DNA from: Eledone cirrhosa
Lineage: Eukaryota
Direction: 5' to 3'
Assembly (NCBI GenBank): GCA_964016885.1
Contig: OZ024742.1
Location: 107,322,001-107,386,000 of the forward strand
Length of the DNA stretch: 64,000 bases
Part shown: positions 16,701 to 64,000 of the stretch, in pieces
How the letters are laid out: every line of letters starts with the position of its first letter
How positions within the stretch are numbered: the first letter of the stretch is position 1
Program-made: the position numbers and the translations under genes
The notes under the pieces: model-generated
Told to the model about the DNA's origin: nothing
Database searches by the model: none
The model's input: only the letters and a program-made list of their open reading frames with translations

Positions 16701-19700
16701 ACCACAGATCCAAAATTCAAGTTATGAGTTATTTTCCCGTGTCAAGAACAGGTTTGTAGCTTAGGTATGTTTTGTATCTCTTATATTTACATATTTACAT
16801 TGTTCATCAGAGATGCCTTGGCAAACAACTTTTGTGTGGCCTCTGTGCATAAATTGCAGAACTTACCATTGCCAATGTACAGTTAGGCTCTGGTAAGTGT
16901 ACTTCATTGTAGTTCATAAAGCATGTTATTTTAACGTAACTGTCTGAGAAGTCTTATCGATAAAAGACATATTCCATTTTCATGGCTTTTCTTGAATTCT
17001 TCTCATTCTGTGATTTCTTCTATTTACAGCAAGATATTCAAAAATATGCTAACTTACAGGTAAGCAAAAAAGTTTATTTTAAATATTTTTCCTTTTTTCA
17101 ACTATATTTATCACTACATCACTTATTGAATGACAAGCCAATGGAGAGATTTTCTACATCAGAATTTTACAAACATTTTTAAATTACTACCTTCTTTTAC
17201 AACATATATTACATCAGCACCTCTTAAAGTCTGTCAAAAATAAATTTTTTTATGTTGGTGTCATGATAAAAAGCACCCATTCCACCCTGTAAGGTAGTAG
17301 TGCTGTGCCGTGATAAAATGCTCTCAATAAACACTGTAAAGTGGTTGGTGTTAGCAAGGGTATCCAGCCATTGGAGCCTATCCAAAAACAGAGTATATGA
17401 GCAGGATATAGTCATCTGACCAGTTTGGCTTTAATATTTGACAGCCCTTCTAACCCATGCAAACAAGAAAAGTAGATATTAAATGGGAATGATAATGATA
17501 AACATTTTTTGTATAACCAAATATATAATTGTACAAAAGTATCTAAAACTATTTGACTTATTAATGTGAAGTTAGGATTGATGTGATGAGACTTAATTTT
17601 TCTCTTGCATCATCACCATGAACATTGTTTTTATGTCAACTGACATGGGTTGGATGGGACTTTGAGGTGATGTTTTACAGGACGACCAAGAAAGACTTGG
17701 GCAGAGGAGATGATGAAGGAACGTGACAAGTGAAGAAATGCCATGCTGAGAAGGACCCATGCAACCATGCAAAAATGGATGTAAAAACGACGATGATGAT
17801 GATAGCAGCATATTGGGAGGTTTTACAATGCAATATTGCCCTGTGTACGCCATCTAAATTACTCAACACCTCCCTGTGGATGTGATCTAAATTATATAAT
17901 ATCTCCCCATAAATGTCAATGAAAATTAGAAAACATTTCCCCATGTATGCCATCTGAATTATGAAACATCTCCCTGTGCATGTCATCTAAATTATTCAAC
18001 ATCTCTTTATATATATCATCTAAATTATTAAACATCTCTCCATGTATGTCATCTAAATTATGAAATATCTCCCTGTGCATGTCATCTAAATTATTCAATG
18101 TCTCTATGTATATGCCATCTAAATTATTCAATGTCTCTCTATATATGCTATCTGAATTATTAAACATCTCCCCATGTATGTCATCTAAATTATGAAACAT
18201 CTCCCAGTTTGTGTCATCTAAATTATGAATCCCATTAAAAAAAAAATCAATTTTCTATATGTTGCAGGAGAAAAAACGTCAAGAACTAATGGCTTTTAAT
18301 CGCCAGTATGAGGAGGACGAGAAGAAAGTTGCCAAGATGGCAGCTTCAGCACTAAAAGACAAAGACCATTTGGTATCAACTATTGCTCAAGTACGTCTCA
18401 TTTGCTTCTACAATTTCTTCAATATTCATTCACCTGATTTTTCTAAAAATAATTTTATTTGTATTTGTTGGCTGTAGATTGGATAATTATGTGATTTTAA
18501 ACATTTTGCATGTGTTTTTACAACTGGATGACTCTCAGTGTCACTGATCACTTGACAAACGGTTTATACAGCCCTGGCAAAGAATGTGCTGCTTAATATT
18601 TAGTAAAGTATACTGGTGCAAGTAATTGAGGCTGGGAATTGAGATAGCCATTATAGCATTGGATCAAATACTTTCTTTGTTCCAGATTTTTACTCTGAGT
18701 TTGAACCCTCCCAAAGTCAAATTTGCTTTTCATCCTTTTAAGATTGATAAATAAAGTACCAGTTCAAGACAGTGGATTGGTGAAAATATTAGAGTGTCAG
18801 ATGGAATGCTTTGTTGTATGTTTCGGCTCTATGCCTCCTAAGTTTAAATCCTGCCTCCTGTCACCTGAACAACGGTGACACAATAGGACTAAAGCTCCTA
18901 TAATTTAAATATCTAAGATTCCTGTGAGATACAACCTCATAGGAGTTTAGCTAAACCTTTTAAGTTTAAGCCATAACAACAATAAATAATGCAAGTAGTG
19001 TAATCCACCTTTGCTAAGGGGCTAATACTATGTTTTAACCTTTTCACTATTGCATTTCTAATGAAATGCACTGCCTATGTGTTTCAGTTTATTTTGAAAA
19101 TAACTAAAAATTTGGAGGAATTTGATAAAATAACTTTTTCATTAGTAAGCTGATATTTAAAACATTACTTAACACAAATTTCTTAAATAAAATTACAGTG
19201 GAAGGTTTTAAATATAAGGATAAACATTTTAAAAATTAGCATATTGGGTTTTCAGCAGAGCTGTTCTGCTAGAGAATGGGTCACAGATGGCAGATAGTGG
19301 TACGGCCACCAGATATGGTTAGTTGCAATATAAGTGGGCAGTTGCTGGATGAATAAGCAATCCCAGACCAACAGTGGTAAACTACTAGGAGAGATGGAGC
19401 AATGAGTGACATCTGTAACTCCCAAGAAAACTCTCACAATCCAGTGCTGTAGATATGATGAGGCAAGTAAGGGCCACCTCTTAAAAAGCCTAGTCTTCGC
19501 AGGTTTCAAAAATGCATGGGTTAACAAGGGACGTGTTCAGGCCTTAGGTAGAGGGGCCTGTTTGAAAAATATATTGCAGTCTCCATTTGATACCGTAAAA
19601 ATTGGCAATGGGCCTGCAGCCTGTCCAGGGAAGCATGGGATGGACGCACAAAGATTGCAAATCCTGAGACCCTAAAGAGGGTTGGAAATGGTTGCTTCTG

Positions 19701-23186: not shown

Positions 23187-26100
23187 TCCATCCACTGGTC
23201 ATCTTTGGCGATGGACCTGGATACTTACTTTTCTTTTGATGAATGGCCAGTTAGCCCTGAAACATACAAAAGCAATCTCTTATGTTTTTTTCTGTGTATA
23301 AACAGAATACCAGAATGTTTTTCACATTTGATTAACCAATTTACAACCACTGGTCATCTTTGGCGATGGACCTGGATACTTACTTTTCTTTTGATGAATG
23401 GCCAGTTAGCCCTGAAACATACAAAAGCAATCTCTTATGTTTTTTTCTGTGTATAAACAGAATACCAGAATGTTTTTCACATTTGATTAACCAATTTACA
23501 ACCACATTTCTAATGAAAAACACTACTTATAATTTTCAAATCATATTTGAAAATAATCAACAATTTGGAGGGATTTAATAATATAACTTGCTCATTTTTA
23601 AGCTGGTGTTCAGGGCGATGTATCGATAGTCATTAAATTGTCGGACAGATGCTTAGCAGTATTTGTCCGAGCTCTTTATGTTTTGAGATCTAATACCGCT
23701 ATGGTCAACTTTGCCACTCATCCTTCAAGGATCAATAAAATAAAGTACCAGTAATGTACTGTGATCAATGTAATCCCCCCCCCCCCCCCCAACACACACA
23801 CACACATTTTCTGGTCTTGTGCTAATGTTAGAAACAAAAATTCCAATGATATTTACAACATAACTAAACAAAGGTTCTTACATAAAATTATGATGGAAGG
23901 TTTTTAGATAAAGGTAAACATTTTACAACAAACAGTTATGTATCATAGAACTAGAGGCAGTTTCAGGCAATTTGATATCAAAAGGGTTTAAGTTACACAA
24001 GGATTATAAAATATAGTTATACCCACATTAAATCTATTGTAGATTTTCTAATATATGCTATGTTCATCATCATCATCATTTTACGTCCGCTTTTCCCTGC
24101 TTGCAAGGGTGAGACGGGTCCTATTCAGCTTCAATGATCTGAGGTCTGCTCTCACCACCTCCGCCCATGTTTTTCGTGGTCTTCCTCTACTACGTCTTCC
24201 TTCAACTGGCATTTCTTGGCTCTTCTTCACCCATCAGTCATCCTCCATGCACATCACATGTCCATATCATCGCAGTCTCCTCTCCCACACACTACAATTT
24301 ATCCCTCTCAGACACAGTTTCTCTCTCAACACATCCATGCCTGGCCGTTCACGCACATTGACATTGCACATCTAACGGAGCATGCTTGCCTGATTTCTCT
24401 CCAACTGTCGCATATCCTCTGCAGTTGCTGTCCATGTCTCACTACCATGCAGCATTGTGCACCTCACACAGGCATCATATAACCGGCCTTTCGTACGCAG
24501 GAAGAAACCCTTCTTCATAGCAGAGGAAGCAGCTCCCTAAACTTCTTCCAACCTGTCCTTATTCTAGATACTATGGCTTTGGAACACCCCCCGCCCATGT
24601 TAATCTGATCACCTAGGTACCAGAAGCTATCAACCAGTTCTATAAGACCCACCTGCATTTGAAAAATGTGTCTATCAATGCAACTTCTACTGTCAAATTT
24701 CCCTGTACATCTACTGCATACGTATTTCTCCCTACCTGTTAGTTTGCCTGCTATTCCACTACATCTCTTGTGTACCCAAGATCTGCATTGTGTACATTTT
24801 ATAGAATTTATGCCAATTCCTTTTCTGCATATCGAACATGGCCATTTCCCTGATGGAATCAGAGTTTTGTCCTCTTTTCTACTCATCAACACTTTAGTCT
24901 TAGCTAGGTTCACTCTCAGTCCTCTTGATTCCGACTGCTGTTTCCATAGCCAGAATTTATTCTCTAGCTCCTCTACTGATTCTGCTATAAGAACCAGATC
25001 GTCAGCATAGAGAACTTCCCAAGGACAGCCAGTCTTAAACTCCTCTGTTATGGCTTGGAGGACTATAATGAACAAGAGCGGGCTGAGGACTGAACCCTGA
25101 TGTACTCCTACTTGTATCTGGAATTCCTTACTAAACTCCATTCCTACCCTCACTTTACTGACAGCACCTCTGTACAAAGCATGCACTGTCCTCACAAGCC
25201 ATTCCTCAACACCTAGTTTCCTTAGGCACCACCAGATGACAGATTGGGGTACCCTATCAAAGGCCTTCTCTAGGTCAACAAAAGCTAAGTATAGTGGCTT
25301 ATTCTTCTCTAAGAATCTCTCTTATAATTGTCTCACTAAGAAGAGGGCATCTGTTGTACTTTTCCCAGGCGCAAAACCAAACTGCATCTCATCTAGTTTG
25401 ACCCTTTCTCCAATTAGTTGCGCTAATATCCTTTCTGCCACTTTCATAACTTTATGTTCTGCAAAAATATTAATTATTCACTTGCTATACAATTTTATTT
25501 TCTAAATAGACCGCATGGAAGAAATACTGAATAGTTCTGCCTACTTAGAGAATTGTCGTAGGAAACATGATGCTGATAAGAAACATGCTGCCAGAAATGC
25601 ATTGGAAAAGTAAATATTCCTCTATTTTTTTTTTTCATTTTTGTTGTTGTTTATTCCCAGATCTGCCTTGAGAAGACTTCTGGTGAAAGACTTTCCAGCA
25701 ATGATCATCTCATGTTTTCAAGTGAAGTGTACTTAGGACAACATTATATAAATTGCTCTTCTTTCTTGTCTTCTAATAAAGGTTTATTTTGTTGCTTTTT
25801 TTTTTATCTCCCAGAGAGATGAATTCTACTCTGTTTTTGGATGATTTCTTGGAATCAAAGTCAGCAGAACAGGATGAAATGGTCAAAGTTCTTACAGAGC
25901 AGGTTTGTTACTCTACTTCTACCAACTGTATTTCTTTATTAGCAAGTCTCAAAATCTGGTATAAAACTAATTTTTCTTGGATTTGGGAGACTTTTTTAAA
26001 GTTATCATTTGACCCCTAACTTGATACAGTCTTTTGGAGTTCATGAGAGATAAGGGAGATATGGTGTTGTGGGTAGACAGTTGGCCCCTAAATTGTTATT

Positions 26101-29100
26101 GGAGGATTATTTATTTGGAATAAGCATCTAATCTTTAGCTTAATGAGAACATCTTGTATTTGTAGGGATTCAGATGGGTGAGATTTATATCATTCTGTAC
26201 ATAGACATAAGTTAGGAAGGATTTCTGGAGTTGAGGAATTGTGTTTTGTGCTGGAGGTATGAAAAATGGTGAGAAGTAGTTGCAGAGAACTTTTTAATTA
26301 GGATTGATTGTAGTTTAATCTCTGGGAATTAGCAGAAGCTTTTTTCAAAGGAAGACACAGCATGGGAGAATTTAACTGATTGACTGAAGGACCTTCTGTA
26401 TTTGAACAAAGATATTGTTGAATAATACAAGGTTCACATGACACATGTAGTAAAGGAAAATTAGGGCTTTAAATTTGGGACTCATTCATTTTTCAGAGCC
26501 AGTGTAATTCTTAGGCTTTGAATAGAAACTCCATAATATTTAATAGAGAGGGTCATCATCATCATCTATTTTCCATGTTTGCATATGCTAGATGAACTGT
26601 CACATACGGAGGCTAGACTGGTCAGGTGACACTGTCTTGTTCATATGCTCTGTTTTTTTAGTTATTTTCTATGGATGGATACCATTCCTAACACCAACCA
26701 TTTTACAGCATTTTTCTGTGAGTTTTTTTCATGGCATTAGCATTACCATCTTACATCTTTTATCATGTCACCTGTGCTACATCATTACAAGTGAATCATA
26801 CATATCTGACCATAGTCATTGAAATTGTAATTTTTAAATAAATATCTTCTATCAACACAGCAAGTTATGGAATATTTATTTGGTAGTCATCAATTTACCA
26901 TTGATAGTTCCTCTAAAATCTACTTATGTACAGGTTTGTATGTGTCTATATGTTGGTGTTTTTACTGATTATATTAAATTTTAATCCTATTGTATACAAA
27001 AAAGTATATCTATAGATTTTAGCCAACATCGTGCAATTGAAAGATGTAAGCACTTTGTCTTACATAAAATATTTTTAGGAACAAAAAATGTGGAATCAGC
27101 CAGACTAGTTTCAATGCAACATTGGGATTTTATCAGTGACTAAACAATACCTACTTTAACTATCCACAGAGACAATGCTTACATAGACTCTATTACTTAT
27201 GGCTTAAGTAAATTGGATAGATCGATTTACATATTAAGATGCATTCTTGAGAGGTAGTAAATTGGTAGAATTATTTGTATGTTGCTTTGTGGTATTCGCT
27301 TTGGCTCTCTGCACTCTGAGTTCAAAATCTGCCAAGTATCTGTTCAGTACTGGAGTTGATTCTTCCTCTATGTCTCTTCCTCACCTCCTCTCTCTTTTCT
27401 TCTATGGAAGACATTGGCTGTGTTCAGCCCTGGAGATGGGTTTTGTCAGGTTTAAAAGTGCCCAAGACATGCTGTACAACATTTCTATAACGCCATCAGG
27501 AATTACTGGCTGATACATACAATGAATTCTTGGCAGTTAGTTTGATTAAAAAATTACTAGTGCATTAACAGTATTTTTATCCAATGCTATTGTGTATACT
27601 ATACTATAAAGTATTATGTATATTTGTGTGTGTGTATGCACTAAAGTACAGTGTATATAAATATACTGTACAGTACACAATAGCATTGAAACAAAACACT
27701 GCTATTGCACCAGCTATTGCACCAGCTATTTATTAATCAAACTAGCTGCCAAAAATGTGTTATTTTTTGTAAATCATGTCTATTCAATTTATTTAAGCTC
27801 TTAGTAATAGAAGCTATAAAAACTAAAAACTATCTTTGGGGAGAGTTAAAGATTGCTCAGATGCTAATGAAATTTCAGCCCAAGATTGAAATTAGTCCAG
27901 CTAATACCTCTTTATACATTGAGGAAAGTATTCTAGATAATGACAAGATGCTTACATCTGTCTGTACATTGTAGTACACAATAGCATGGGAACAAAACAT
28001 TGTTAATACACCAGTAATTTATGTATTGAGTTTGTTGCTGTAATATATGTATTAATTTTGTTGATGTAATATAGGACCCTATTTATCAGTTATGTAGACT
28101 AATGAAAGCAGAATTTTGTGTCTTCTTCTTGGGTACAAAACAATAGATCTGATAATATTTGAATGCCAAACCATATTGTCCAAAATTCTGTTGAGGAAAT
28201 GACAGTGTATTTTGAACATTTAAAATTTTAGTGACTGAATTCTCAAGTTTCTTTATGAAATAGTATTTGTACACGTTTTGCTAAAAGGTTTTATTTTCTA
28301 TTTAGTATCATATAACATAATTGATATGTGTGTAAATAAAGATATACCTTAACATTATCAGGAAAATCTTCAGAAGGCAGCTTTTGAAGCTCTGCTTATG
28401 CAAAAAGACTCGCGTCACAGTCGTGTTTCCACCCAGATTTCTTTGATTGAGAAAGAATTGGCTCAGCTGACTGCAATTGAGATAGAAAGGAAAGAATTGC
28501 GAATGGATATGGAAAAGGTATGGAATATTATTTCTTTTTAACTTTAACAAAATATCATCATTGATTGTTTAATCATCATTGCTTTACATGTACTTTTTTC
28601 ATGCCAGTATGCATTGGACTAGACATTTGTAGGCAGCTTTTATACAGCCTGGTATCATACATTATTTTATTATACATACTGCTGACGTTTGTTGAACCAC
28701 TACACAGTGAAACACATTGTTATGGTGGGGTGGACATAAAAATGTTACTGCTTGGTTTTTAAAGAATGTCAGTATGAAGAAATTTGTAGTGACAGACCCA
28801 TATACACATGCACTTATTTATCATCATCACTCTTTAACATCTATTTCCTATGTTTGCATGGATCAGACAGTTTGTCACGTTCTGAGGCTAGACTAGTCAG
28901 GTGACCACATATATGTGTATCTGTGTGTGTGTGTATATATATATATATAGAACAGATAGAGACATTTAACGTAGAAGAGAACTGGGAGTTCCTAAAAAAT
29001 AACTTACTAGAGGCGACGGATGAGGTTTGTGGCTGGAGTAAGACCTCAAGCAGGAGGAGAGTGACTTGGTGGTGGAACAATAAGGTAGATGAAGCAGTCA

Positions 29101-32100
29101 AGGCCAAGAGACAGGCATGGAAAGAATGGAAGAACGGGGGGAGCAGAGTACATTACATAGAGACCAAGAGGGAAGCTAGGCGACAAGTATACTTAGCTAG
29201 GAGGGAAGCAGAGGATAGAAAATTCAAGCATGTTTTACAACGTGAGGACCAGAAACAGGAGGTATTCAAGATTGCGAGGCAGTGTGTCAGAGATAGTTGT
29301 GATGTCATTGGAGAGAAGTGTATCCGGAATGATAAAGGTGAGCTTGCCCTCACAAGTGCTGAGAAGAAAGATGCATGGAAGAGTCATTATGATAGATTAC
29401 TAAATGAGGAGAATGCATGGGAAGAAGAGACCCTACCCCACGTAGACCCTATAGAGGGACCAGCAGTACAAGTCAGTGGCAGCGTAGTAAGTAAGGCAAT
29501 CAGAGATATGAAGATAGGGAAGGCAACCGGTCCATCGGGTATAGCTGCCGAGATGCTGAAGGCATCTGGGTCTGTAGGTCACACTATAACCACACGTATC
29601 GTTAACCAGGTAATACTAGAGGGGGCCATACCAAAAGATTGGTGCAGTAGCATCATTGTCAACTGCTACAAAGGTAAAGGTGATGCACTAGATAGAGGAA
29701 TCTATAGAGGTATAAAGTTGATGGACCAGGTCATGAAAGTAACAGAAAGAGTTATAGCACAGCTGATTAGGGACCGGGTGAATATAGACGAGATGCAATT
29801 TGGGTTTGTACCAGGGAAAGGCACCACTGATGCCCTCTTCCTTGTGAGGCAATTACAGGAAAAGTACCTAGCTAAAAGTAAGCCACTCTACTTGGCATTT
29901 GTCGACCTTGAGAAAGCCTTTGACAGAGTTCCACGTGCAGTAATCTGGTGGGCTCTTAGAAAACTAGGAGTAGATGAATGGCTTGTGAAAGCGGTACAAG
30001 CCATGTATAGGGGAGCAGTCAGCAAAGTTAGGATTAGCAATGAGTATAGCGAGGAATTTAGCGTACAGGTTGGGGTCCACCAGGGCTCTGTTCTTAGCCC
30101 TCTCCTGTTCATCATAGTCCTGCAGGCAATAACGGAGGAGTTTAAGACCGGATGCCCATGGGAACTCCTGTATGCTGATGACCTCGCACTCATAGCTGAA
30201 TCTATGGTAGAACTAGAGAATAAATTCCAAACCTGGAAGCAGGGACTAGAGAGAAAGGGCCTCAAAGTCAACATGACAAAGACTAAGGTCCTTATAAGTA
30301 GACGAGAAAACAGAACCCAGATCCCCTCAGAGAAATGGCCTTGCTCAGTATGTAGGAAAGGTGTAGGTAGGAACTCCATTCTCTGCCCCAAATGCAAACA
30401 ATGGGTACACAAGAGATGTAGCGGGATCTCAGGAAGCTTAATTAAGAATGTAGGATTCACATGCAGCAGCTGTGCTGAAACAGCAAGCAAACAGCCACAG
30501 GAAACAAGTACCACCAATCTCTGGGAGGGGCCTGTAGAAACAGTAGACAGCTTCTGCTACCTAGGTGACCGAATTAGCAACGGAGGTGGGTGCTCAGAAA
30601 GTACAATAACTAGGGTAAGAATGGGATGGAAGAAGTTTAGGGAACTACTACCACTGCTAGCTGCAAAAGGCTTCTCCCTCAGAATGAAAGGCAGACTGTA
30701 TGATGCGTGTATCCGAACAGCGATGTTGCATGGTAGTGAGACCTGGGCGCTGAAGGTGGAAGACTTACGTAGATTAGAGAGAAACGAAGCCTGCATGCTC
30801 CGATGGATGTGTAACAGTAATATACGTGAACGACAAAGCATAAAGGAATTGAGAGAGAGACTGAGCATAAGAGGAATCAAATGCTGCGTGCAGGAGAGGC
30901 GGTTACGCTGGTATGGACAGGTGATGCGTATGAAGGATGACAGCTGCATAAAAAGGTGCAGAGCACTAGAAGTTGATGGAAACTGCGGAGTGGGGAGACC
31001 CAAGATGACTTGGGAATAGGTGATAAAAGCCGACCTTACCCAACTACACCTCTCAAAGTCAATGACACACGACCGTGACTTCTGGCGTCACGCAGTAATA
31101 CAGGGTACCCGACCTCCCATGGGTACATGCTGAAGCATATAAACAATATGCCCCCACTCCCCCCACCGCAAGGTGGTCGTGGAGGTGCCACAGCAAAAAA
31201 GCACCCAGCCCACACTGTAAAGTGGACGTGTAGGCGCCACGAAAAAGCACCCAGCACTCACTGTAAATGAGGTTGGTGTTAGGAAGGGCATCCAGCTGTA
31301 GAAATCAAGCCAGATCAGTTCCTGTATGAGCAAGGCATGGTCAGCCGACCAGACACTGCCCACAACAGGACAACCCGTCTAACCCATGCTAGCGTGGAAG
31401 AACGGACGTAAAACGGTGATGATGATGATGATGATAGCACATAGAAGCTTTTGCTGTATTTTCTGTAGTAAAAAAAAAATACAACAAACGCTTCTAATTT
31501 AATTATATATATAGAAAATATGTTTTCCATTCAGAGTTATTAGACTACTTTTCATATTCAAACAATCTTGATGCTTCTTTAAAATTCACAAACTTTCTCT
31601 CACTCAACAATTCTAAAAATAAATTACATATCTACTAATATATAATATGCTTGTGTATTTGTCCATCACAAGAGATGACTGAGAAAGTAAAGGGCAAACA
31701 GAGAAAGGAAGGGATAATAACGTTGACTGAAGAAGGAAGGAGTGATAACGTCGACTTAGGAAGGAAGGAATGATAACGTCGACTGAGAAAGGAAGGGGTG
31801 ATAACGTCGACTTAGGAAAGAAGGAGTGATAATGTCGACTTAGGAAGGAAGGAGTGATAATGTCAACTGAGGAAGGAAGGAGTGATAACGTTGACTTAGG
31901 AGGAAAGAGTGGCAGTGTCCTATATTCACTACATCTGTGTGTGTCTATATGTATAGCGAATTGGCTACACACATTGGTTGTTATGATTATCATCATCATC
32001 ATCATTCTACATCCGCTTTTCCCTGCTTGCAAGGGTGGGACGGGAACTGATTCTGGCTTGATTTCTACAGCTGGATGCCCTTCCTAACACCAACCTCATT

Positions 32101-40326: not shown

Positions 40327-43300
40327 CTATGAAACAAAACAGAAAAGAACATTTATATAGAGTAACACGTAACATGTATTTCAGAGGATGATTACTACAT
40401 CTACACATTGTATTACAAGTGAGTTTTCTACTTGGGTAGCAATTAATAGAAGTGGTTTCCCACCTGATGTCTTTCATTTCTACAGGTATTAAGTATCCAT
40501 CAAATATGACATCTTTTAGAAAAGAAAACTATGTAATTAATTCTTTTAAACTTTCAGAAAATAAATTCCAATATCAACAACAACTGTTCCACATTATTAT
40601 TATGGGTGGCAGAATTGTTAAAGCATTGAACAAAATAATTGTTTCTACTTTAGGCACAAGGCCAGCAATTTTGGGAGAAGGGAAAATCGATTAAATCGAC
40701 CCCAGTGCGTTACTGGTGCTTTATTTACCGACCCCGTATGGATGAAAGGCAAAGCTAACCTCGGCAGCATTTCAACTCAGAACGTAAAGGGCCGTAATTA
40801 TGCTGCAAAGCACATTGTCCTACGCTCTACTGATACTGCCAATCTACCACATTGAACAAAATAATTGTTTCTACTTTTGGCACAAGGCCAGCAATTATCC
40901 CAGTGTATTACTGGTACTTTATTTTATTGACCCCGTAAGGATGAAAGGCAAAGTTAACCTCGGCGGGATTTGAACTCAGAATGGCAAGGGCCGTCACTCT
41001 ATGCGTCAAAGCATGGCATCCAACCCTTACCAATACTGCCAATCCACACATTGAACAAAATAATGCACAGTATTTATGTTCTGAGGAAAAATTTGTCTTT
41101 CATCCTTCCAGGATCAATATAATTGACTTTCCCCGCACCAAAATTAGAAGTCATTGTTATTCATTAAGGCAGTGGATTAGTTAAATCATTAGAGTGACGA
41201 ATAAATGCTCTGCTGTATTTGTTTAGGTTCTTTACATTCTGAGTTCAAATATTGCTGATGTCAACTTTGTCTTTCATCATTCCAAAGTCGCTAAAATGAA
41301 GAAGCAGTTAATTACTGGGGTCTAGATAATCGATTTTCCACCACCCCATAAATTATTTGCTTTGCGTTAAAATGAAAAACCATTATTATAATTGTTATTG
41401 GAGTTAATGTCTTTAAAGTTAGATTTTATCAAGAAACAATCCAAAACCTGTCACGTGTGTACCCTTGAAAACTGTGACACAAACCAGTTCACTGCTGTAA
41501 GCAATGACAACTAGATCCCAACTTTGGCTTATACAACAAAATACCATTTCTGCCAGGTGGTAGTGACAGTGCCACAATAAAATCTGCACGGTACATGCTA
41601 TGAAATGGCTGGCATTGGGATAGGCATCCAGCTGTAGGAACTATGAGCATGATGCAGTCACCTGACCCGTCCAGCCTCATAATGCAACAACCTGCAAGCA
41701 TGGAAAATATATGTAAAATAGTGATAAAGATTGTGATCATAGCCTAAAAGTCAGAGAGACGATCCGCCTCCACCAGTTTAAAGGTTTTCCCAAGATATTT
41801 TAGCAAAAACAATAACAGCAACTTAACCCTTTAGCATTCACATTGAATTGTCAAATGTCATGTTCATCTATTCGCATTATTTTCACTTAATTATACTCAA
41901 GAGGGTTATCAATTTTATTTGTTTGTAATTACTTTAATTTTCTATGTGCAGACTTGAAATTTTGTCAGTAGATGTTTAAATAACTATAATTTACAATTAT
42001 ATATTTTTACCTGATTTTTTTTGTTAAATTTGACTTTTATGGGCAGGTGAAATTAATTAACAGGTGTAAAAGTAATAACTTTATGGATAAACACAAAAAT
42101 TTAAACTTTATCTGCCTTATCTGTTAGATTTGTTGCAAAAAAATCCAATAATGACCTAGATGCTGATTTCCATCAATTCTAGCAGTTTTCTGAACAGGTG
42201 AATTAATTAAAAATGCAGGTGTAATCAGTACACGGTTTTAGTCTTTCTCTACATTCCAGGCAAATATTTTCATTGAAAAAAATGTATAAAACCTTTTCAC
42301 CAGTCAAAATAATATTGGCAATGTACTCTGTAAATTACGTAATAGAAAGTTCCCAATATATAAGTTTATACACACTTTTAAATTTTTCTGACAATATTTC
42401 AATTAATGGTCGTACTTTGTACAGTGGGTCGTAATTTGATTCATTTCTACCAGGGGCATTTGAAGTATCAACCAGATGCAAATACTGGTTTAATTTAATG
42501 AATCTCGTTTTTGCCATAATACTAGATATATAAGGGTCACCAAACCTTATATCAGTACTCCAATAATTCCACAGTCGTGGAAATTGTTTAATACCAAACA
42601 TAATATTTATGGTAAAAAACGCTTTCATTTCGGCAGAATCTGTCGGACAACATAACAGATCGGGTTTTCCGATATTAGAAATTTGTTGTTGTGCATAGCG
42701 ATTTGCCACAACTTCGAAGAAAGATTGTGGTAAAAATAAAAAATAATAATCCAGTGCTTTAGCATCGGGTGGTAATGTGTGTTGTGGTCCAATATTTTCA
42801 GTAAAATCCGAAACATGTATCGATGTTGTTTCTTTCAACCACATTGCTATTTTTTCAATGGTGTCAGTCAAATCTTCTCTTTCACTTTCAAAGTAACTAT
42901 CATCATTATCAGATATATCAGAAATAAATATATCTGATTCGTTTGAAGATAAATCACTGATATTATCTTCTGTTTCTTTTTGATCTCGAATGTCGTCGGA
43001 CGTAAAACCTTCAAATTCGTTGTCGCTACTTTCGGAAGCCATGTTACACTTTCAATGTTAAAAACACGTGTTATCGCAAGTTCTTTAACTATACTAAGAG
43101 TTAATTTTCGCGCGTAAGGGCTTTATCTCGCAGTAATCTCGAATTGACGAGATTTCGATGATGTCAATGTTTATTTTTAGAAGGAAATCTCCGTGTGGTA
43201 TTAAATGTCGGTTTTTGTCGGTTTGAATAAATGAAAGGGGACATAATCTTGTCGGTTTTTGTCGCTTTGAATGCTAAAGGGTTAAATTGATGAGGACGTG

Positions 43301-46300
43301 CCACAAGTGAATCTTATCTTTTTTCAGTATCATCACCAACATCACTTTACATCTGTCTTCCATGCTGGCATGGGCTGGAAAGTTAGAGCTCGTGCCTTGC
43401 TCATGTTCCATATATGACATAGCTTCTATGACTGAATGCCTTTTGTAACACCAAAAACCTTACAGGCTATACTGGGTGTGTTTTATTGTGGAACCAGCAC
43501 ATTACAGAGTATACAAGGTGAATTTTATGTAACAAGAAATGTATTGTATGCATTTTTACCATTGCTCTAGCACAACCACAGTGGAGATAATGAAGGCATG
43601 CAACAAATAGAGGGATACTGTGTTGGAAAGAACCTGTCCATCCCATGCAAGCATGGTAAAGCAGACATAAAATGCTGATGACTTGACCATAACTCTCCAA
43701 CTCCCTATTAAACAGAACATATACAAATGAAGTCTTCCATATATTGACACACTTACCTCATCGTCTGTTTCAATATAGTCTTCATCTTTAGAGTCCAATT
43801 CTTCTTCCTCCATACTGCCATCTTCTTCCTCCTCTTCATTCTCATTCTCATTTTCATCACCTTCCTCTTCATCATCTATCACAATAGTCTCTTCTTTGGC
43901 TTTTCTTCTTTTCTCAGAGGCTTCCTTCTTTCCTTGCTGTTCTCTGCGGAATGCTGCAAATATAAAGAATTTAATTAAGATATCCTGGTTTTTAAATTAA
44001 AATCATGATGGAAGGTTTTTAAATAAATAGAAAACTATTTTGAAGTGCTATCATTGAACAAGAGTGAGTTTGGTATCAAAAAGGTTAAGGAAATGTTAGA
44101 GTTGTAAGAGACAACAAAAAGGGCAGGTGCCTGGGAGGGCATCCAACTGTAAAACATTATCATAAAAGATCCCATGCTAGCATGGAAAACTGGATGTAAA
44201 AACAATGATGATGATGCTGTATAAACTAGACTATTATATTCTATCAAGGGCTCTACATGAAGAGGCAAAGCTGTTCATCATCTTCATTTAATGGCTGCTT
44301 TCCCTGCCAGTAAGGACTGGACTGATTGTCTTAGACTGATTCAGCACAAAAGAGGAGCCATTGACCTTCAGGTGGGCCAATCAATCTATTAAGTGTATTA
44401 TATCATGGCACCAACACGTGATTCTGTGCTCTACTAAATATATTATATCACAGCACCAGCACTCAAGAGAGTGTTGTCGTTGACACAACTGAAGAGTCTT
44501 CTCGTCCCTTTGTCTGGCAGGTTTTCTATGGCTGAATGCTCTTTTTATCACCAACCACTTTACAGATTGTGCTGGGTGCCTTCAGAGTTTAAATCACCAA
44601 CACTAGATAGTACTTCCAAATTAGTAATGAATCAGCAACAAAGACAGGTCACTGATAAACTAACAAAACATCACTGACCCCTTTTACACCAAACCACCCT
44701 TGGGTCTATGATATAAAGCCATTTGTTTTTAAGTGTTATATTTAAATTTTAACCGTCCACCATAATTTTGTTACATTATAATTCAAACAACAGCTTCAAA
44801 ATGAGGAAATTATTTTACTAAATACCTCAAAATTTTTGATTATCTTTATAATTAATCAAGAATCAGTCAGTATTTTTCATTAGAAATATGGTAACAAAAC
44901 ATTTAATTCCTGTAACATATTTCCCATTGCAATTACTTAAACTCTAATGACAATATGTTCTTTCTGCCCATAAAAAATTTATAAGACACTAATATACACA
45001 TCATCACCAACCATTCATGTCCACTTTTCCAGGCTTGCATGGGATGGAGGAGGGTCTTTGCCAGCTTGGCCTCCATACACTTGTGTTCCTTTGTCATTTC
45101 CTCTGAAGTTCAGTGTTTTGAAATCAGTTCTCTTCTGACCAGATCATGTGGTTTTCTATTGCAGCATCGTTCCACTAAGATTTCTTAGCACACTCATATG
45201 TGTCATATGGCCATATTAGTGTAATCGTCTCTCTTGCACATTACAGCTGATTCCACTTTACCTAGTTTTCCTTTCAGTTCACCCATGCTTTGTTGTTCAT
45301 GCATATTAACAACACATATATCCATTGAAGCACACTTGCTTAATTTCTCTCCAGCTTTTGCATAATCTCTGCACTCACTGCCCATGTTTCACTTCCATGC
45401 AACATTGCACTTCACACACAGGCATCATGCTGCCATCATCCATGTAATGGCAATGTAATAGAAATTAGTTTTTATCACATGGTTTTAAATATAAATCATA
45501 GGGCTTAATAAAGGATGAAAATTCTTAAAATATAAATATAAACTGGGGTATGTGCTTTTACAATATAAAACTATCAAACCAAAATGTATAATGGGGTTCA
45601 AACCATGTGGTTACTCCTCACAACTATTACTGTTAAATTTACCAACATCTGCCAGAGCATTGGATGAAATTAATATCAGTTAAATACTGGGAGCTGTTAT
45701 GTAATTCACCATATAACCACCCTCAATATGTGTTGTGACTGTAGCATAGTAGGTAATGTCAATATGTTTGGTTTAGAAAAAAGTTTCTTAGAATCTAGCC
45801 TGGGTCCAAGTACATGACCAGAGTTCAAACAAACCAAGACATAATACAGAGTAATCACCCTAAAAAAATGATAAGACTCAACTCTTAACATCCTGTATCA
45901 CATGAAACCGCATTAGTAAGACATTCTGGAAAAATACAAAATATCACTATGACTGCATCACATTAAAAATTGGAGTCTTTCCTCTGATATTGCAAGTTTG
46001 CACAATTTGACCTCTAGTAAAGATACTATTAAACATTTTCATTCAGTTTTAGATACTTTCTGCAAAATTATTAAAGGATCATTATCACTGTTAAATGTCA
46101 AATTTCCATGCTTGCAAGGGTTAGATATGCTATCACTTACTAAGACTAGACAGGCTAGGTGACATCTTGCTTGTACACTTCATGTTTTGGCTTCCTAATG
46201 CTAATCAATTAACAGTATGGACTGGGAGCATTTTATCATGATTCTAGCACTACTACCTTACAAAGTAGACTGGGTGTTTTGATGTGGCATCAGCACTACC

Positions 46301-54962: not shown

Positions 54963-55034
54963 ATGAGTAGTTCAGAGGAAGTCTCTTGGATTTCCTGGTT
55001 TTGTGGTTTGCGGGGGAATGAATTCTTCTGCGAA
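54963..55034 (+). CDS. CSNK2B: CSNK2B coding exon 1 [24 protein letters not shown]
   Basis: Acceptor at 54957, donor gtgagt. Confidence 0.97.
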
Positions 55035-58000
55035 GTGAGTAGAACTGATTTATTTTGTTTGCCATTCTTTGTCAATTTGTTATACAAATTCAAACATTTA
55101 CTTTCTACAATAACGTATATAGAGAGATTTAGTCACTTGATCTATTATAAATAATAGCCAAACTCCTTCAAATCACACCTATTTTAAAACGGGTTTTAGA
55201 AGCTAAATGATGTTCTCATAAATATTAAAAAATGCAGGAAGACAAAGGCTGGATCATGGGTTTGCTTCGGATAGGTTTAACCTAGTGCTAAACAATGTAT
55301 ATAAAACAAGAGTTTAGAGAAAATAGTTCTTCATTTTTACTAAGTAAATTTTAACTCTTAACATTTTGTAATGATTGAGAAGAGAATATCTATAACTGGG
55401 TTTGTTGATTCAAGTGTTTGTACTATCTTTATTAGACAGATTGTTTTGAAAATTTAATTTTCAATGTAATGCAGTCATAGTGCTGTTTTATACTTTTCAA
55501 CAATGCCTTGCTTGTGTGTTTTCATGCAGTATAGGATGTTAATAGTTAAAGTGAACTAACTTGTAAACATTACACTTGCCTGAAATGTTAATTGGAAAGT
55601 AAAGCTGAAGAAATGTTACCTCCCATAGTTGCTATATAAAGTTAAAGAACAAATGAGGGAGAACTTGTGCCCAAGAAATTTTGTTTCTCTGATTAGTTTC
55701 TCTATTCATTAATGTTTGTGATGACTATTTCACTAGGGAGTGATATCTATTATCTGAAACTCCACTACTCACACATAGATATGAAAATAAAGCAACAATG
55801 TGTCGGGAGGACTCTTCAGTTATGTCAAAGACTTGACAATCTCCCTTGTGGTAATCTACATGATAAAAGCACCCAGTATACACTGAAAAGTGATTGATAG
55901 GTAGGACATCCAGCTGTAGAAAGCTTACCAAAGAAAGAGTTGGGGTCATCCTTCAGTTGTGTCAGATATGACAGTCTCCCTAATCCTAGCATCATTATAA
56001 AAATCGCTCAGGTGAGTGTGGGATTGTATGTAAGCACGATGCAACTCCCGCCCATCTGAGGGGATCAGTAGCTGTGCTTGAGTACTGATTCAGTTTGTCC
56101 AATTGTTGCTTTTGCTAGAAAATGTATAAGCAACCAATACCTTGCCTACACAATCAGTTTCTCTCTCCCTGCCTTTTAAAATCACATCTTAAGTGTGAAA
56201 AGCGCATTTCATAATCTAGTCCTATGTTCTGACTGGAAGAAAACAAGACAGCTAGTCACAGCTGTACCACGTGAAATGGCATTAGCATGACATTTTTGAA
56301 AAGTACAAAGCATTACATTTAAAATGAAAGCATTTACTTTAATGCTGTAAAATTCACTTGTCGACTGTCGTTATTGTATTCTTTGTTAACTGCATATCCT
56401 TAGTTTGAAACAGTAGGAGGGGTGGGGGTGCTTAGAAGCATTGGTTAATATAGTACATTGTTGCAAACTCTTAATACACGAAATGTTAGCTAGTAAACTG
56501 TGTAAAAGAAGAGAGAAATGTACTTCCTAGTGTCAAGAATCTTTACAGCTTCTGCTTTCTTTGAAAAAACATTGCAAACTGATTCTGTCATCTCTATATA
56601 GCTGTGTTATTTTAGATTAGGTCTGTGATTAGACACAGTCAATTTTTTTTTAAAGTTAATTTAATTTTTTATGGGAGTAGAACATTAGATTAACCCCTTA
56701 TGTTGGGTAGTACATATTTTATTGACCCAATGAAAGGTTTAATCACCATTGGTTTGTTTGATCAGTTCCAACCTAGAGCTAAACAATATCAATAATTTTG
56801 TCATTATTGCAATAGTACTGTGATGTCTCTTGTGCTAATAATTATTTGCTATCATCTCCATAGTTATCACTGGGAGATTTAGTGTAGGGCTCAACAATGT
56901 TTGACTTAGGGACGTGTTTCTGTTTCATTTTCTAAGCATATAATTTAACTATAAGCTTAATCCTTTGTCTTGTTTTGTGTTGCAGGTTGATGAAGATTAT
57001 ATTCAAGACAAATTCAACTTAACAGGTTTAAATGAACAAGTCCCTCACTATAGACAGGCTCTAGATATGATATTGGACCTAGAGCCAGGTACTCATATTA
57101 TTGCTTTTGTTTTCATTTAAAAAAAATATATTTGTAATGTTGTTTAATGTAAGCAAGATAGAGGACTGTGGTTGAAATATTGGTTTAGCTGCTCATGGGT
57201 GCAAATATGGCTGTGTAGTTATGTAAGTCCAGATTCAGTCCTTCATTGTGGCACCTTAAGCATCTACCATAGTCTTGATTGAACCCAGATCTTATTAATG
57301 AAAATTGATGGACCTAATCCATCTCCTAGTGTAACACCACTTTATGGTCTCAAGTGCCTTCAGCAGAGTCCACTTTGTGATAAGAGCTTGGAGTAATTCT
57401 GCTGTGTAAAGATAATCAATGAGTTTTCTTTCTCTGTCATGGGTGCTGCCCATCCTCTGACTAAACCACAAAATATAATCTTTAGCCCTTTTGATATCGA
57501 AATACATAGTTCTATGGTGCAAAATTTTGTTCCTAAAGTGTTTATATTTATCAAAAACGTTTCCATTATAATTTTATGTAAGAATCTTTTTTAAGTTATG
57601 CTTCAAACACCAGCTTGATAAAGAGAAAGTTATGTTGCTAAATCCCTTTAAATTCTTGATAATTTTCAAAGGGATTTGAAAATCATCAGCAGTGTCTCTT
57701 ATTAGAAATATGGTAATGAAAGGGTTAAAGTTCAGATTTTTTGCTCTTGTATTTTGTTTTTCTTGTCATAACATTATTTTTTGTGACATAGTTTACCTAG
57801 CTGTCTTGAATATGTATCAGATTAATAATTTGTTATAGATCAGTTGATCTAACAGCCTATGCTGATTAACCATTAGATTCTGGACTCTGATTTGTTTACA
57901 GTATGGTGACTATATATTAAGCTCATCACATAAAACACCATTCATCATCAGATGAATATCTTTGACTATGAAGCATTGCAAATATTAAAAACCAGCAGTT

Positions 58001-60756
58001 TTTGTTATGATTGAAGCAGTCCTGTATTACCGATCTATCCTAGTAAATTTTGCAGTTTCTAAAAGGGTCTTCATTTTCAATCATTAATTGAATGTATATT
58101 TTGGAGATGTGTTTATAGTGGTATACAGATTGTGTCCTTCATGTGGTGGCTTGTGATATTAGCCAGTATTTCTCTCATCAGTCAACTATGTTGTCATATT
58201 TGTAATATTATTTTGCATAGGAAATTAGAAATTGTTGTTAATCCATTTCTTGATCCACTTCAGTACAGTAGACCTTGGATGTAATAACTCATCTATCCAT
58301 AACACATTTCTACAGTTGGATTCCTTTCCTGATACTAACCTATACTTTTAGTATGATAGGGATTCATTGACTTAACACATACAAACATTTGTTGAACTGA
58401 GGCTATAGCAGAAGCAGCTATTTACAATAGTATTTGCATATGTCCCAATGTTCATGAGAAATATGTCACTTCATGTTCTTTAATCAACTTTAGATACTGA
58501 ATACAAAATATAAAAGGGTATACTAGTTTATTTCAAGCTATTTTTTCTTTGTTTTGGTTGCAGTCATATTTCAGTATCCACTATTCATTAGTGTTCTTGC
58601 TGCAAAATAATAAATGATAAAATAGTTTTTCTCCCCATCAATAAAATAAAACGAATGAAATCAGAATTTTAAATTTATTCTCGTTTCTCGAGTAATGCCC
58701 TCCTTCCTCTGCTTATTAATTTTTCAGATTTTTTCCAATTCCTCTGTTTATTAAATTTTGCTAATATATCTCTTGCAAAATGTTATTTTAAGTGGCAGCA
58801 CTCCTTTGATAATTTTCTTTAGACATTAAAAAACATTATACGTGACAAAAAAGAACATTACAAGAAATCTCATACGTTATAAAATAAATTGGACTAATTC
58901 TGGTTCTTAAAAGATCAAGGGAGACAACCAAGAAACATTATCCATTCCCTTCTCCCCCGTCCCATTATATAGGACCCTTTTAAACGAGATAAAATTAGTT
59001 TTATTGTGAAAGGGAGGTAACTTTTTCTTGCATATCACTACACTGATATTACATTAGGTGGATGGACACACTTGCTATTTGATTTAAGTTTAGAAAATGT
59101 TTGCATCTCCATACAATCAACCTCGTTTCAAATAAGGTCCCTGCACATCCTGAGCACCTTTTTTATCTCCATGTGTCTAACACACGTGGACATGCCTACA
59201 AAATCAGAAAACAGCACAGCTCCTATGACTTTCGGAAACATTTTTTCACGCTTAGAGTTGCTGAAGCATGTAACAAACTGCCTGCATCAGTTGTTAGCTG
59301 CCGAGACACTGCATCCTTTAAAACCCTCATGCTTCTCGAAATTCGCCAAAACTACACCTGATGTACTCCTTCCATACACATGCACACGTGTATATCATGA
59401 CTCATGCACTGTTAATTTTCCTGACGTTTGTACATTACCCTATGTACTATACATACACTTTTTGATGAGTTGTAGTGCATCTCAACACTACACAATATTT
59501 TCATTATTATTATAACAGAGTTCACAGTACACACATTTTTTTTTTTTCATATATATTTTGCTTGGTAAAAATTCAACCTCCTTGCTAATGCCATTGTGAT
59601 ATTAAGAACATTTCAGCTAAATTTATAGCTGTCTTAAATTCTTTGCCTGAAGACATTGATATTAGATATGATAAACTAACACAAGTTACTATCACATACA
59701 GTTGTTGTGGTGTTGCAATAAACTTAGCTCACAGGGTCTGGTCTTATTCCATCTGATAGGGTCTAGTCTTACTACAGCTATTCCTGTGCTTCTAAATCTA
59801 GGTACAAATCTCCAATTATTTCATTCTGACTATGTTCAGCTGTAAAACCCTATTTTACACCTGACTGAAACAACAAATGTGATAAAAGTTGGAAGCAGGC
59901 ATTGATTGTGTGATTAAGTAGTTTTGATTTCCATTCCATAGTGACACATTGGACAAATGTCTTGTATGGTCTCTATCTTGAGTGAATGTGGTAAATGGTA
60001 ACAGTCGGGAAGTTCATTGTGTGTTGGTTTACTGCATGTCTCCTTGTATTGATAACATTTAACCCTTTAGCATTTACATTACTCTATATTTACTATTTTG
60101 ATATTATTTATTTTGAGAACAACGCCTTAACATCAGCATGAGTGGCAGGTTACAGCTGCTTTGAACAGAAAGAGGTGAGAGAATTCTGGCCGGTTTAAAT
60201 GCTAAAGGGTTGAAGAAAACAATGACATGTCATGCAACTTATATAAAGTGTGTGTTGACATCATGAATGACAGTGCCATGATAAGACACCCAGTTCACCT
60301 TGTAATGTCTTAGAGTTGTTGCCACAACTAAAGCATTCAGTCTACCCTATAAGGCAGTAGTGTGGGTGCCATGACAAAAACCATGCAGTCCACCCGGCAA
60401 GGTGGTTGTGTTGGTGCCATTAAAAATGCTCCCAGTATATGCTGAAAAGTGGTTAGACAGCTGGTTTAACTCGTGCAAGCATGGAAAATAGATGTTAAAC
60501 AGTGATAATGGTGATTCTTGATGAGTCAGATTTTGTAACTCACAGTGTTAGTAAATTATGCTCAACTGATTTGTATTTGTGTGGAGGATTGTTTTGGTAT
60601 CATCATCATTATTTAATGTCCATTTTATCTGCTAGCAAGAGTTGAATTGGTTGTCACAGACCATGTCAGTTTTTGTAGCTACTGGCCTCAGGCAGGCTGG
60701 TAGCTCGTCACTTCTATACATTCTTGCAATCTATAGAGTGCCTCAAGTATTTACAA

Positions 60757-60791
<35 letters not shown>

Positions 60792-62211
60792 CATACACAC
60801 ACACAAGATTGATCAGTTCTTTGAGGACATTTGTATATATTTAGCAAAGAGGCATAAGTCATGAAAGAGCTTTATTTGAGAAAAAATTGGCATCTTGAGA
60901 GACTTTCTAGCACACCTACATAATGAATAAGGTCTGAAATGTTGACATGCTCGAATCAGTTGATCTTAATCTATTTTGGACATTGTGCGAGTTATGGTGG
61001 AAATCAGAGATTTTATAGTGTTATGGGGGATGTTGATTGACTTCCCTTCTTGACTATGCCCATATGTAATATTCCAACAGATTCAGATCTGAAGAGCTTG
61101 AAGGCCACATGTTTGGGGTAACATGATCATGGAGATTGTAAGTCATCTTGGCCTTATGAGACGGTACAAGTCTTGTTGGTATGTGTAGTCTTCTTTTGCT
61201 CATGCTGTCTATCCAAGGCCTCACAACCCTCTCCAGCACCTTGTAGTCAGCAGCATTGGCCCTTATGCCCTAAGGAAAGAAATGAGGAAGCATGATATCT
61301 TCCTTGTGTTGGAATGTCCTTAGGGTCTCTGCATAACCATCTGTCGTTCTTTCAGTTAATTTTTTGGTCCTGATCAAAGTTTTCCTCATCAGAGAAAAAT
61401 CAAAGCATTCCAGGCTCTTGATGTTTCAACTTGCTGAACAGGCACTTTATGTGGATCAGACAGTTATCTTTGTATTTGCAAACATGGATTGGCCTCTCTG
61501 CATCACATATGACTTGTATCGAAGCTCCTCAAGCGCAATTCTTTCGTTAGTGCCTTCGAATTCATGATCTCCTTAGCAATGGTGCTAATTGACTTTCTGG
61601 GGTTCTTTTTGTAAACTTTGACAACAAACAACCATGCAACTTAGAGGAAGTGTGCAATCTTTAAATTACTATGATCTGCCTTTAAGGCAATGATTACAGC
61701 ATGTCTTTTCATTTGCTGAGTTAGCTTGATGTCTGTCATCAGAACAAGTTAGAGCTGTTAAAACATGTCCAAGAAGAACTGAGCAACCATCATCATCATC
61801 ATTTTACGTCCGCTTTTCCCTGCTTGCAAGAGTGAGACCCTAACCCTGTATATATTTATATATATATCGGAAAATAAACCAAAAACAATACAGTACAATG
61901 AAGATATATACTAATTTAATGCTTAATATAGTGGGAAAAGAGTCCCAACATTTTGTACATGGTGAGAAGTAACTAAAAGAGTCGGTGTCAGAAAGGGCAT
62001 GCTGTTGTTAAACATTGCCTCAAAAGTCCTGTCTAACCCATGACAACATGGAAAAGTTGGTATAAAAACGCTGATGTATATATCATCATCACCGTTTTAT
62101 GTCCCTTCTTCCACTCTAGCATGGGTTAGACGAGTTGTCCTGTTGTTAGCAATGCTAGGTCAGGTGAACATGTCTTGCTTATACAGAACCGATTTTGGCT
62201 TCATTTCTACA

Positions 62212-62247
<36 letters not shown>

Positions 62248-63120
62248 GTACACACACACACATCCGCTTTTTTTGTGTTTCTATGGATACTGGTATATAC
62301 CACTAAACATTTATTTTCCAGCGATACTGCTATACATTTTTTTTATAACTAGCATAAACTGTCACTGCAGGTTTTAAATGGTGTCGATATTGAGTTCCTG
62401 GTAGCTGGCATGCACAATATATATATATTGTGGTTGGCATTAGGAAGAGCATCCAGCCATAGAAACCAAGCCAAAATCAGTTCTGTGTGAGCAAATTCAC
62501 TGTCCCCCCGAACTGATTTCTCACAAAGGGACAGCCCATGATAGCGTGGAAGAAGATGATGATATATATAAAGGTGTACCACACATACACACATGACAGG
62601 CTTCCTGCCTGCAATTTCCATCTGTCAGATTCACTCAAGGCATTAGTTAGTACAGGGCTAAGGAAGACTCCCCAAGGTACCTTGTGTTGGACTGAACACA
62701 AAACATGGTTCTGAAGTGAACTTCATAATCACACAACCATCCTTGCACCTACTATATGAGCATGGAAAGCAGACTTGATATTAGCTGCTTTGTACTTCAT
62801 ATGTAGCTACCTGCACTAGCTTAGGCAGCATATGCTCCTGTGCTAATTCTAATTTACTAACTTAAATAGAAAAATATTGTATAACTATCCTGTTTTAAAA
62901 TACTTTATGGCAAAGTAAATCAAAATGTCTTGCAGTTAGTCGTGTAAATTTCATTGTCTTTATCTGTCAAAGCCACTTCACAACAAAGATCTATTTTCTT
63001 GTGTTAGACGATGATGTGGACGACTGCATTACTAAAGACCAGCTGGAGCAGGCTGCTAGCATGCTTTATGGACTAATTCATAATAGATATATCCTAACCA
63101 ATGCTGGTCTCAGTACTATG
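54963..63120 (+). CDS. CSNK2B: Casein kinase II beta regulatory subunit, 3'-incomplete
   Basis: Exons 54963-55034, 56986-57088, 63008-63120. The first 58 aa match the canonical animal CK2beta N-terminus as I recall it. Confidence 0.95.
56986..57088 (+). CDS. CSNK2B: CSNK2B coding exon 2 [34 protein letters not shown]
   Basis: ttgcag| ... |gtact. Confidence 0.97.
57485..57724. mobile_element. Second TTAA-type MITE family (related ends at ~23985, 36957-37314, 38691, 44070, 44680)
   Basis: Ends CCCTTTTGATA.. / ..AAAGGG|TTAA with a shared AT-rich interior. Confidence 0.6.
59072..59513 (+). mobile_element. CR1/L2-group LINE 3' end
   Basis: [33 protein letters not shown]-terminal motif, then 3'UTR and (ATT)n tail. 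Confidence 0.8.
60063..60209. mobile_element. piggyBac MITE (147 bp), same family as 49990-50169
   Basis: TTAA|CCCTTTAGCATT ... AATGCTAAAGGG; shared interior TTGAACAGAAAGAGGTGAGAGAATTCTGGC. Confidence 0.82.
60940..61745 (-). mobile_element. Degraded Tc1/mariner-superfamily transposase relic
   Basis: VVRPWI...[16 protein letters not shown] resembles the WPxxSPDLNPxDY motif; frameshifted; TIRs not located. Confidence 0.6.
63008..63120 (+). CDS. CSNK2B: CSNK2B coding exon 3, divergent: [38 protein letters not shown]
   Basis: gttag| ... |gtaag, phase 1 to 0, MLYGLIH.RYILTN motif. Confidence 0.85.
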
Positions 63121-64000
63121 GTAAGAATTTGTCTGCTTCCTGCCATGATCCTTTTGTATGTTTAAAAAAAATTGTTCTTCCTATTTTTTTGCCTTGCATA
63201 CTCTGACATTCTCAATCTGAAATGCCTTCGGCTGTGTTTGTTTTTCCTGCCTAACTTTAATACCTATTTGAGAGAATTTAGTTCAGGATAGCTAAATTTT
63301 ACATTTTTGATGCTTCTGTCTATATTATTTACTGTATTGTGTCTGGAGAAAAAAAGTTGCTAATAGACTATGCTGGATTAGAACTGTCAATTCATGTAAA
63401 ATTGGTGCAGTCAGTATGAATCTTGAAGAGTTAACATTTAGGATGTTGTGGGGTCAGATGAGGAAGTGTTGGTGCCATGATAAAAAGCACACAGTTCACC
63501 CTATAATGGTTATGCCAGAGTCGCAGTAAAATGCCAAAAACGGAGTATACGAGCAAGATGTAGTCACCTCACCTGTCTAACCTCAGTATGTGACTTCCCA
63601 TCTAATTCATGCAAATATGAAAAATAAACGTTAAATGGTGATGATGATATCAATAGAATACATACTCCAAGATGGAATTTTGATTAATAGACAGTATATT
63701 TCCCTTTTTCCTGTTAAAGAAACTATACTTTCTAAACAGTTGTTCAGCCAATTTTGGCAAAAGGATTTCCAAAGGTACATGAAAATAGATGTTTGGCTGA
63801 GTAACAACACTTAAATATCTTCAAAACATTTGTTGTAAATACTTATATATTTAATTAATAAGCAGTTATAAGAAATAGAGATAATGACATAACTAGCTTA
63901 TAAATATCAACTAATTAGAATAAATCTAAGTGATCATTTAATTAAAATCTGAAACATCATATAGTACTTAGAGTTTACTGCTATTAATAGCATCAATTGT

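Follow-up and report, generated by a model that had tools for sequence, protein, structure and literature searches.

Tandem copies of coding exon 3, likely spliced as alternatives, in the CK2beta gene of the octopod Eledone cirrhosa

In the single CK2beta gene of Eledone cirrhosa, the third coding exon is duplicated in tandem, and the two copies are likely spliced in an either/or fashion. The downstream copy (exon 3b) would give rise to the canonical subunit of 221 residues, and the upstream, divergent one (exon 3a) to an isoform of 220 residues that is probably minor. Exon 3a lies within the window, i.e. the whole 64,000-nt stretch of DNA analysed here. Window coordinates are continued past 64000 for exons 3b to 6, and the contig position equals the window position plus 107322000.

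Two copies of exon 3 in one gene

The gene is laid out as follows:

54963..55034, plus strand: CK2beta coding exon 1, from the ATG, 24 codons
56986..57088, plus strand: CK2beta coding exon 2, 103 nt, phase 1 at its end, encoding acidic-loop residues 55-58
62986..63007, plus strand: acceptor AG of exon 3a and intron flank, conserved in run X1, with upstream similarity continuing beyond an indel
63008..63120, plus strand: exon 3a, the divergent duplicate, 113 nt, phase 1 to 0, corresponding to human residues 59-97 minus one
63121..63152, plus strand: donor GT of exon 3a and intron flank, conserved in run X1 and P0001
63121..64000, plus strand: intron between 3a and 3b, first 880 of 1168 nt, up to the window end
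64289-64404 (contig 107386289-107386404), plus strand: exon 3b, canonical, 116 nt, phase 1 to 0, past the window end
68480-68555 (contig 107390480-107390555), plus strand: CK2beta exon 4, past the window end
70929-71118 (contig 107392929-107393118), plus strand: CK2beta exon 5, past the window end
72445-72553 (contig 107394445-107394553), plus strand: CK2beta exon 6, past the window end

The original prediction, made from the letters of the window, had placed a divergent CK2beta exon with intact splice sites, an open frame and a given translation at 63008-63120, all of which held (113 nt, AG/GT, phase 1 to 0). It had seen no canonical copy in 57089-63007, and indeed none lies between exon 2 and position 63007, while the tandem canonical copy it expected downstream was found as exon 3b, 1168 nt past 3a and just outside the window. 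Searching the species' own genome with the 3a peptide yielded two matches from two candidates, exon 3a itself and this second copy, which resides on the same strand between the shared flanking exons 2 and 4. The two copies have matching phases (1 to 0), similar lengths (113 and 116 nt) and intact splice sites. No third copy of exon 3 was detected across 54900-72700, nor was any other CK2beta exon doubled. All five PF01214 matches in the genome (best 10 candidates scored) fall within this one gene, which is the only CK2beta locus found. A separate paralogue or retrocopy of the Stellate, CK2beta' or SSL type is not indicated by these matches, which lie in one gene with exon 3 alone doubled. For the N-terminal extensions that some RefSeq isoforms have, the window yielded no 5' exon.

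Exon 3a scores 31.9 bits against the Pfam family CK_II_beta (cut-off 27) and, in a comparison with PDB, matches human CK2beta (E 1e-7). Compared to 3b, 21 of the 37 whole codons specify the same residue (22 when the split first codon is counted; 57% identity) and one residue is deleted, which agrees with the roughly 22/39 identity and the one-residue loss that had been predicted relative to a canonical exon. With 57% of the residues in agreement and 10 of the 16 shared degenerate codons differing, 3a and 3b are, by this measure, old copies. A contig from DNA run X2 matches L003:800-2113, spanning the whole of exon 3a, with zero differences; the unusual residues of 3a are therefore not assembly errors, although X2 is possibly the assembly's own sample.

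Elsewhere, the window holds several other open frames. LINE-type retrotransposon open frames occupy 3909-6914 (minus strand, 1002 aa) and 28905-31016 (plus strand, 704 aa); in both, the reverse transcriptase domain is immediately followed by a PHD finger, an arrangement reminiscent of Vingi/Ingi-related elements, and the former also encodes an endonuclease. Look-alike LINE fragments are located at 24518-25321 and 12051-12479 (both minus strand). A DDE_Tnp_1_7 transposase fragment, presumably piggyBac-like, lies at 42338-43051 (minus strand, E 7e-22), with an acidic open frame just upstream of it (43559-43996, minus strand). Finally, 17919-18254 (minus strand) is an open frame composed of a short imperfect repeat of ~11 residues, for which there was no Pfam match.

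Conservation and occurrence of exon 3a

Sequence run X1 derives from a relative (organism A), and its RNA nature is a guess. A 1230-nt contig of this run fits the window over 167 nt only, namely 3a plus ~20-30 nt of either flank, with 12 differences; the exon itself is 90% identical and the surrounding introns no longer align. The 11 differences listed for the exon comprise five synonymous and six nonsynonymous ones, the latter altering four residues, and the last 21 nt are free of listed differences. This corresponds to a dN/dS of ~0.28 (Fisher p 0.048, on 11 differences), or to p 2e-4 when exons 4 and 5, with their 18 differences, serve as a yardstick under the assumption that nearly all of these are synonymous. 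Exon 3b differs from X1 at 2 positions in 119 nt. Judging from these small counts, both copies are maintained by selection across species. The divergence of 3b (L003:2289-2404) is also low when set against exons 4 and 5 (2/119 vs 18/270 differing from X1, p 0.046), so this exon seems constrained beyond its protein sequence, a pattern that splicing signals or RNA structure would be expected to leave.

Exon 3a being just 57% identical to 3b might be taken as the mark of a dead pseudo-exon or an assembly artefact. We consider this highly improbable, since the DNA-run contig is identical, the exon is 90% identical in a relative with unalignable introns, and a RefSeq isoform includes it. Stops, frameshifts, lost splice sites and intron-like divergence were all missing from 3a, and the pseudo-exon reading is largely refuted.

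As to the form in which X1 captured these exons, its contig over 3a continues unspliced past either edge of the exon, and the contigs over 3b and exon 4 start and stop at the exon edges plus those letters that exon and intron share. The latter pattern suggests that spliced and unspliced forms occur side by side. The X1 contigs are silent on the splicing of 3a, because contigs drop rare forms. A>G differences in X1 were also considered as RNA editing; the two coding ones were rejected, as the O. sinensis proteins share those residues.

Three of the four residue differences from X1 (N67T, D77S and A85N) look derived on the E. cirrhosa lineage, with polarity inferred from 3b. This raises the alternative that 3a works in the O. 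sinensis lineage and is losing constraint in E. cirrhosa, where it would be rarely used or encode an unstable protein. Two of the changes hit sites that are fixed or nearly so among 151 other proteins covering the segment (position 77 is E in all 151; position 85 is A in 148, S in 2 and C in 1), and D77S and A85N each needed two base changes in one codon, for which random placement gives a 1.5% chance. However, doublet mutation or selection could explain the double changes equally well, and they fit positive selection as readily as drift. Besides, the reading frame, both splice-site dinucleotides (AG and GT) and the flanking sequence are undamaged, the donor agrees with the consensus at 6/9 positions as does that of 3b, and the stretch without listed X1 differences is at the very 3' end of the exon. 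Decay in E. cirrhosa appears unlikely to us, and the changes as such fit relaxed selection, positive selection and doublet mutation alike.

Outside this genome and X1, a protein search with 3a returned two proteins from five candidates, XP_036361111.1 (P0002) and P0001, so that four 3a sequences are known here: the E. cirrhosa genome, run X1, O. sinensis and P0001. P0002 is the Octopus sinensis casein kinase II subunit beta, isoform X2 in RefSeq, in which 3a is placed between exons 2 and 4 without 3b; in the O. sinensis isoforms X1 and X3, the slot is taken by 3b. The 3a segments of E. cirrhosa and O. sinensis share 33 of 38 residues and differ at 5. P0001 is an open frame across unspliced 3a and is identical to O. 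sinensis over the exon. In the protein cluster of P0002, 3a occurs in 1 of 12 members, and the O. bimaculoides, O. vulgaris and Argonauta entries have 3b; as just one cluster member carries it, the 3a form would seem to be minor or restricted. Transcript support for 3a consists of one computational RefSeq model, in another species (O. sinensis). RefSeq alternative models are normally built on transcript alignments.

Wider searches for 3a returned no additional members. None was found in word-index protein searches (42 matches from 114 candidates; 6 from 33) or ten cluster look-ups, and in a HMMER scan of 1.84 billion representatives 0 of 148 new sequences among the best 150 of 769 were closer to 3a than to 3b. 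The ESM Atlas returned generic CK2beta clusters only, with scores under 0.9, and a metagenome scan for 3a with its flanks produced 594 pattern matches, 0 of them confirmed. Likewise, a second exon-3 copy between exons 2 and 4 was found at 0 of 80 metagenome loci of other animals (80 kept of 537), 33 of which contained the entire upstream intron (18 distinct) and 17 both introns (9 distinct); none of the 80 has a near-cephalopod sequence (82.5% nucleotide identity at best). One weak match (E 0.02), at locus L062, is located beyond exon 4. From this, the duplication looks confined to octopods or to cephalopods, the genomes of squid, cuttlefish and Nautilus having been outside the search.

Splicing of the two copies

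Translation of the four possible splice forms agrees with an exclusive use of the copies. Inclusion of 3b alone gives a protein of 221 aa that is identical to Octopus bimaculoides isoform X2 at 221/221 positions, and inclusion of 3a alone one of 220 aa, with 214/220 residues identical to O. sinensis X2 counted from the second Met of the latter. The predicted message containing both exons meets a stop after residue 108, 343 nt ahead of the last junction, and that containing neither exon a stop after residue 59; both would presumably be removed by nonsense-mediated decay. Early-stop decay is described as able to enforce exclusivity where exons are not multiples of three (PMC6071210). Joint inclusion had been predicted to be impossible at 113 nt. 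The frame does break, as that argument required, yet splicing of both exons is possible and would yield an early-stop transcript. Mutually exclusive use as such is supported by the shared phase of the copies and by O. sinensis XP_036361111.1, where 3a replaces 3b.

The same early stop could mean that 3a is mainly a poison exon, spliced together with 3b such that degradation tunes the CK2beta level. The intron of 1168 nt poses no steric bar to double inclusion, and a regulatory exon, too, would be expected to have conserved intron flanks. However, constraint on the encoded residues is not required of a poison exon, yet the dN/dS is ~0.28, and the O. sinensis RefSeq model has 3a without 3b. Poisoning as the main role of 3a hence strikes us as quite improbable, and an either/or choice between two coding exons as the better account.

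Steric exclusion of 3a and 3b was rejected, the intron between them being too long, and minor-spliceosome incompatibility is unsupported, as both exons are flanked by GT-AG introns with ordinary donors (consensus match 6/9 for each). Pairing of the downstream flank of 3b with 3a was the best of 730 windows (-24.0 vs -23.8 for the next), which is likely chance, and it was set aside because it would also bury the 3b donor. A predicted 11-bp stem with arms at 64256-64266 (contig 107386256-107386266) and 64412-64422 (contig 107386412-107386422) would enclose 3b and cover a branch-point-like word, in the layout of a downstream docking site; such a stem may aid skipping of 3b. The stem is weak, with 7/500 shuffles as good for 1 of 5 exons tested and a whole-region z of -0.75, and a docking-type stem around 3b is put forward as a lead only.

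The altered surface and its wider context

The acidic stretch of CK2beta is described as consisting of the loop Asp55-Asp70 and a groove to which the first part of helix D belongs. The loop engages a neighbouring tetramer at its basic substrate site, and patients have been found with lysine in place of E77 (E77K), a helix D residue of the groove (PMC9608649). Substrates are docked by the CK2beta loop, and the binding site of spermine is close to residues 60-63 and 72 (PMC8533506). The original prediction placed the acidic regulatory and polyamine-binding loop in this exon. In 3a the loop end is altered, its charge is kept, and residues 55-58 are encoded by exon 2. Five of the first six residues are acidic in 3a and 3b alike, and acidic residues total 7 or 8 in 3a vs 8 in 3b. 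Common to all 3a sequences are a loop that is one residue shorter after residue 64 and contains a cysteine and a lysine, the exchange L71Q, loss of E77, R92A and changes at 94-96. The cysteine noted in the original prediction is thus shared by all four 3a sequences. Its HARY>HNRY change is real in E. cirrhosa but no trait of the isoform, since O. sinensis and run X1 keep HARY. At position 77, the relatives have D and E. cirrhosa has S. The core residues Y80, H84, R86 and M97 are retained.

Position 92 is R in 149 of the 151 other proteins. P0225, P0226 and P0291 are other natural exon-3 sequences with alanine at this position, so R92A need not alter function. P0170, an open frame over CK2beta exon 3, contains several tandem repeats of the 3' end of that exon. 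AlphaFold models of the 3a form and of a canonical control reached mean pLDDT values of 47 and 52, respectively, both low-confidence.

Exons 4-6 encode the zinc finger and the CK2alpha-binding tail, both of which are retained in the 3a form (PF01214 match). With these parts, the charge and the core residues kept, the likeliest outcome is a 3a subunit that still assembles, and would thus still build a holoenzyme, but that presents an altered acidic surface. Having preserved the negative charge of the loop, 3a would reshape the loop end and alter the helix D/E surface (E77, R92), which would not turn the kinase off but retune how substrates dock, how polyamines act or how holoenzymes stack.

On the human subunit (PDB 1JWH, 3EED, 1QF8), the exon covers the disease variants E77K, Y80N, R86C and M97I; the S or D at position 77 of 3a is a neutral or conservative exchange, whereas E77K in patients is a charge reversal (PMC9608649). 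The nearest counterpart to E. cirrhosa 3a is O. sinensis X2 (XP_036361111.1), where the same exon in the same slot replaces the canonical one. This is an automatic model for which no printed description was found, and it keeps D77 and HARY where E. cirrhosa has S77 and HNRY. Exons 3 and Ab of U2AF1 are reported as mutually exclusive exons from a tandem duplication (PMC5224494), and the CK2beta copies resemble these and the clusters described in PMC6071210 in being tandem homologous exons of similar length and identical phases whose lengths are no multiples of three. Those cases are other genes, however, and exclusivity and stem are predicted here from sequence alone. According to a review, one CK2beta isoform is the rule in metazoans, with the exception of Drosophila, for which it lists five Dm-CK2beta splice isoforms and the separate genes CK2beta', SSL/CK2beta-Tes and Stellate (PMC5374408). 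Octopods would thus resemble flies as a lineage with more than one regulatory subunit, and the fly paralogues differ in the acidic region too; yet the fly splice isoforms, as described in that source, differ in their C-terminal tail only (PMC5374408), whereas the octopod gene would swap internal residues 59-97 within one gene. A duplicated internal CK2beta exon was not described in the literature searched (few subscription journals, supplements excluded). Tandem either/or exons are a known and common device; the CK2beta instance is undescribed in that literature and sits unremarked in RefSeq.

As a constitutively active kinase, CK2 poses the open question of how its activity is tuned in cells. 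The main handle proposed is the acidic stretch of CK2beta, via substrate docking, polyamines and tetramer stacking (PMC8533506, PMC9608649), and a natural, selected either/or exchange of residues 59-97, in a protein that is otherwise invariant, would be a ready-made experiment on this surface. It is conceivable, if somewhat doubtful, that octopods evolved a tissue-regulated second CK2beta by exchanging the end of the acidic loop together with helices D and E. Were this the case, the holoenzymes built in cells expressing 3a, some with mixed 3a/3b dimers, would differ in substrate range, in their response to polyamines and in self-inhibiting stacking; the loop cysteine common to the four 3a sequences might make them sensitive to redox state, and the changes in the E. 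cirrhosa lineage would be adaptive. It would then represent the first internal splice switch of the CK2beta regulatory surface in an animal within the literature searched. Either way, the swap touches the human disease residue E77 and would add octopod-specific protein diversification through splicing.
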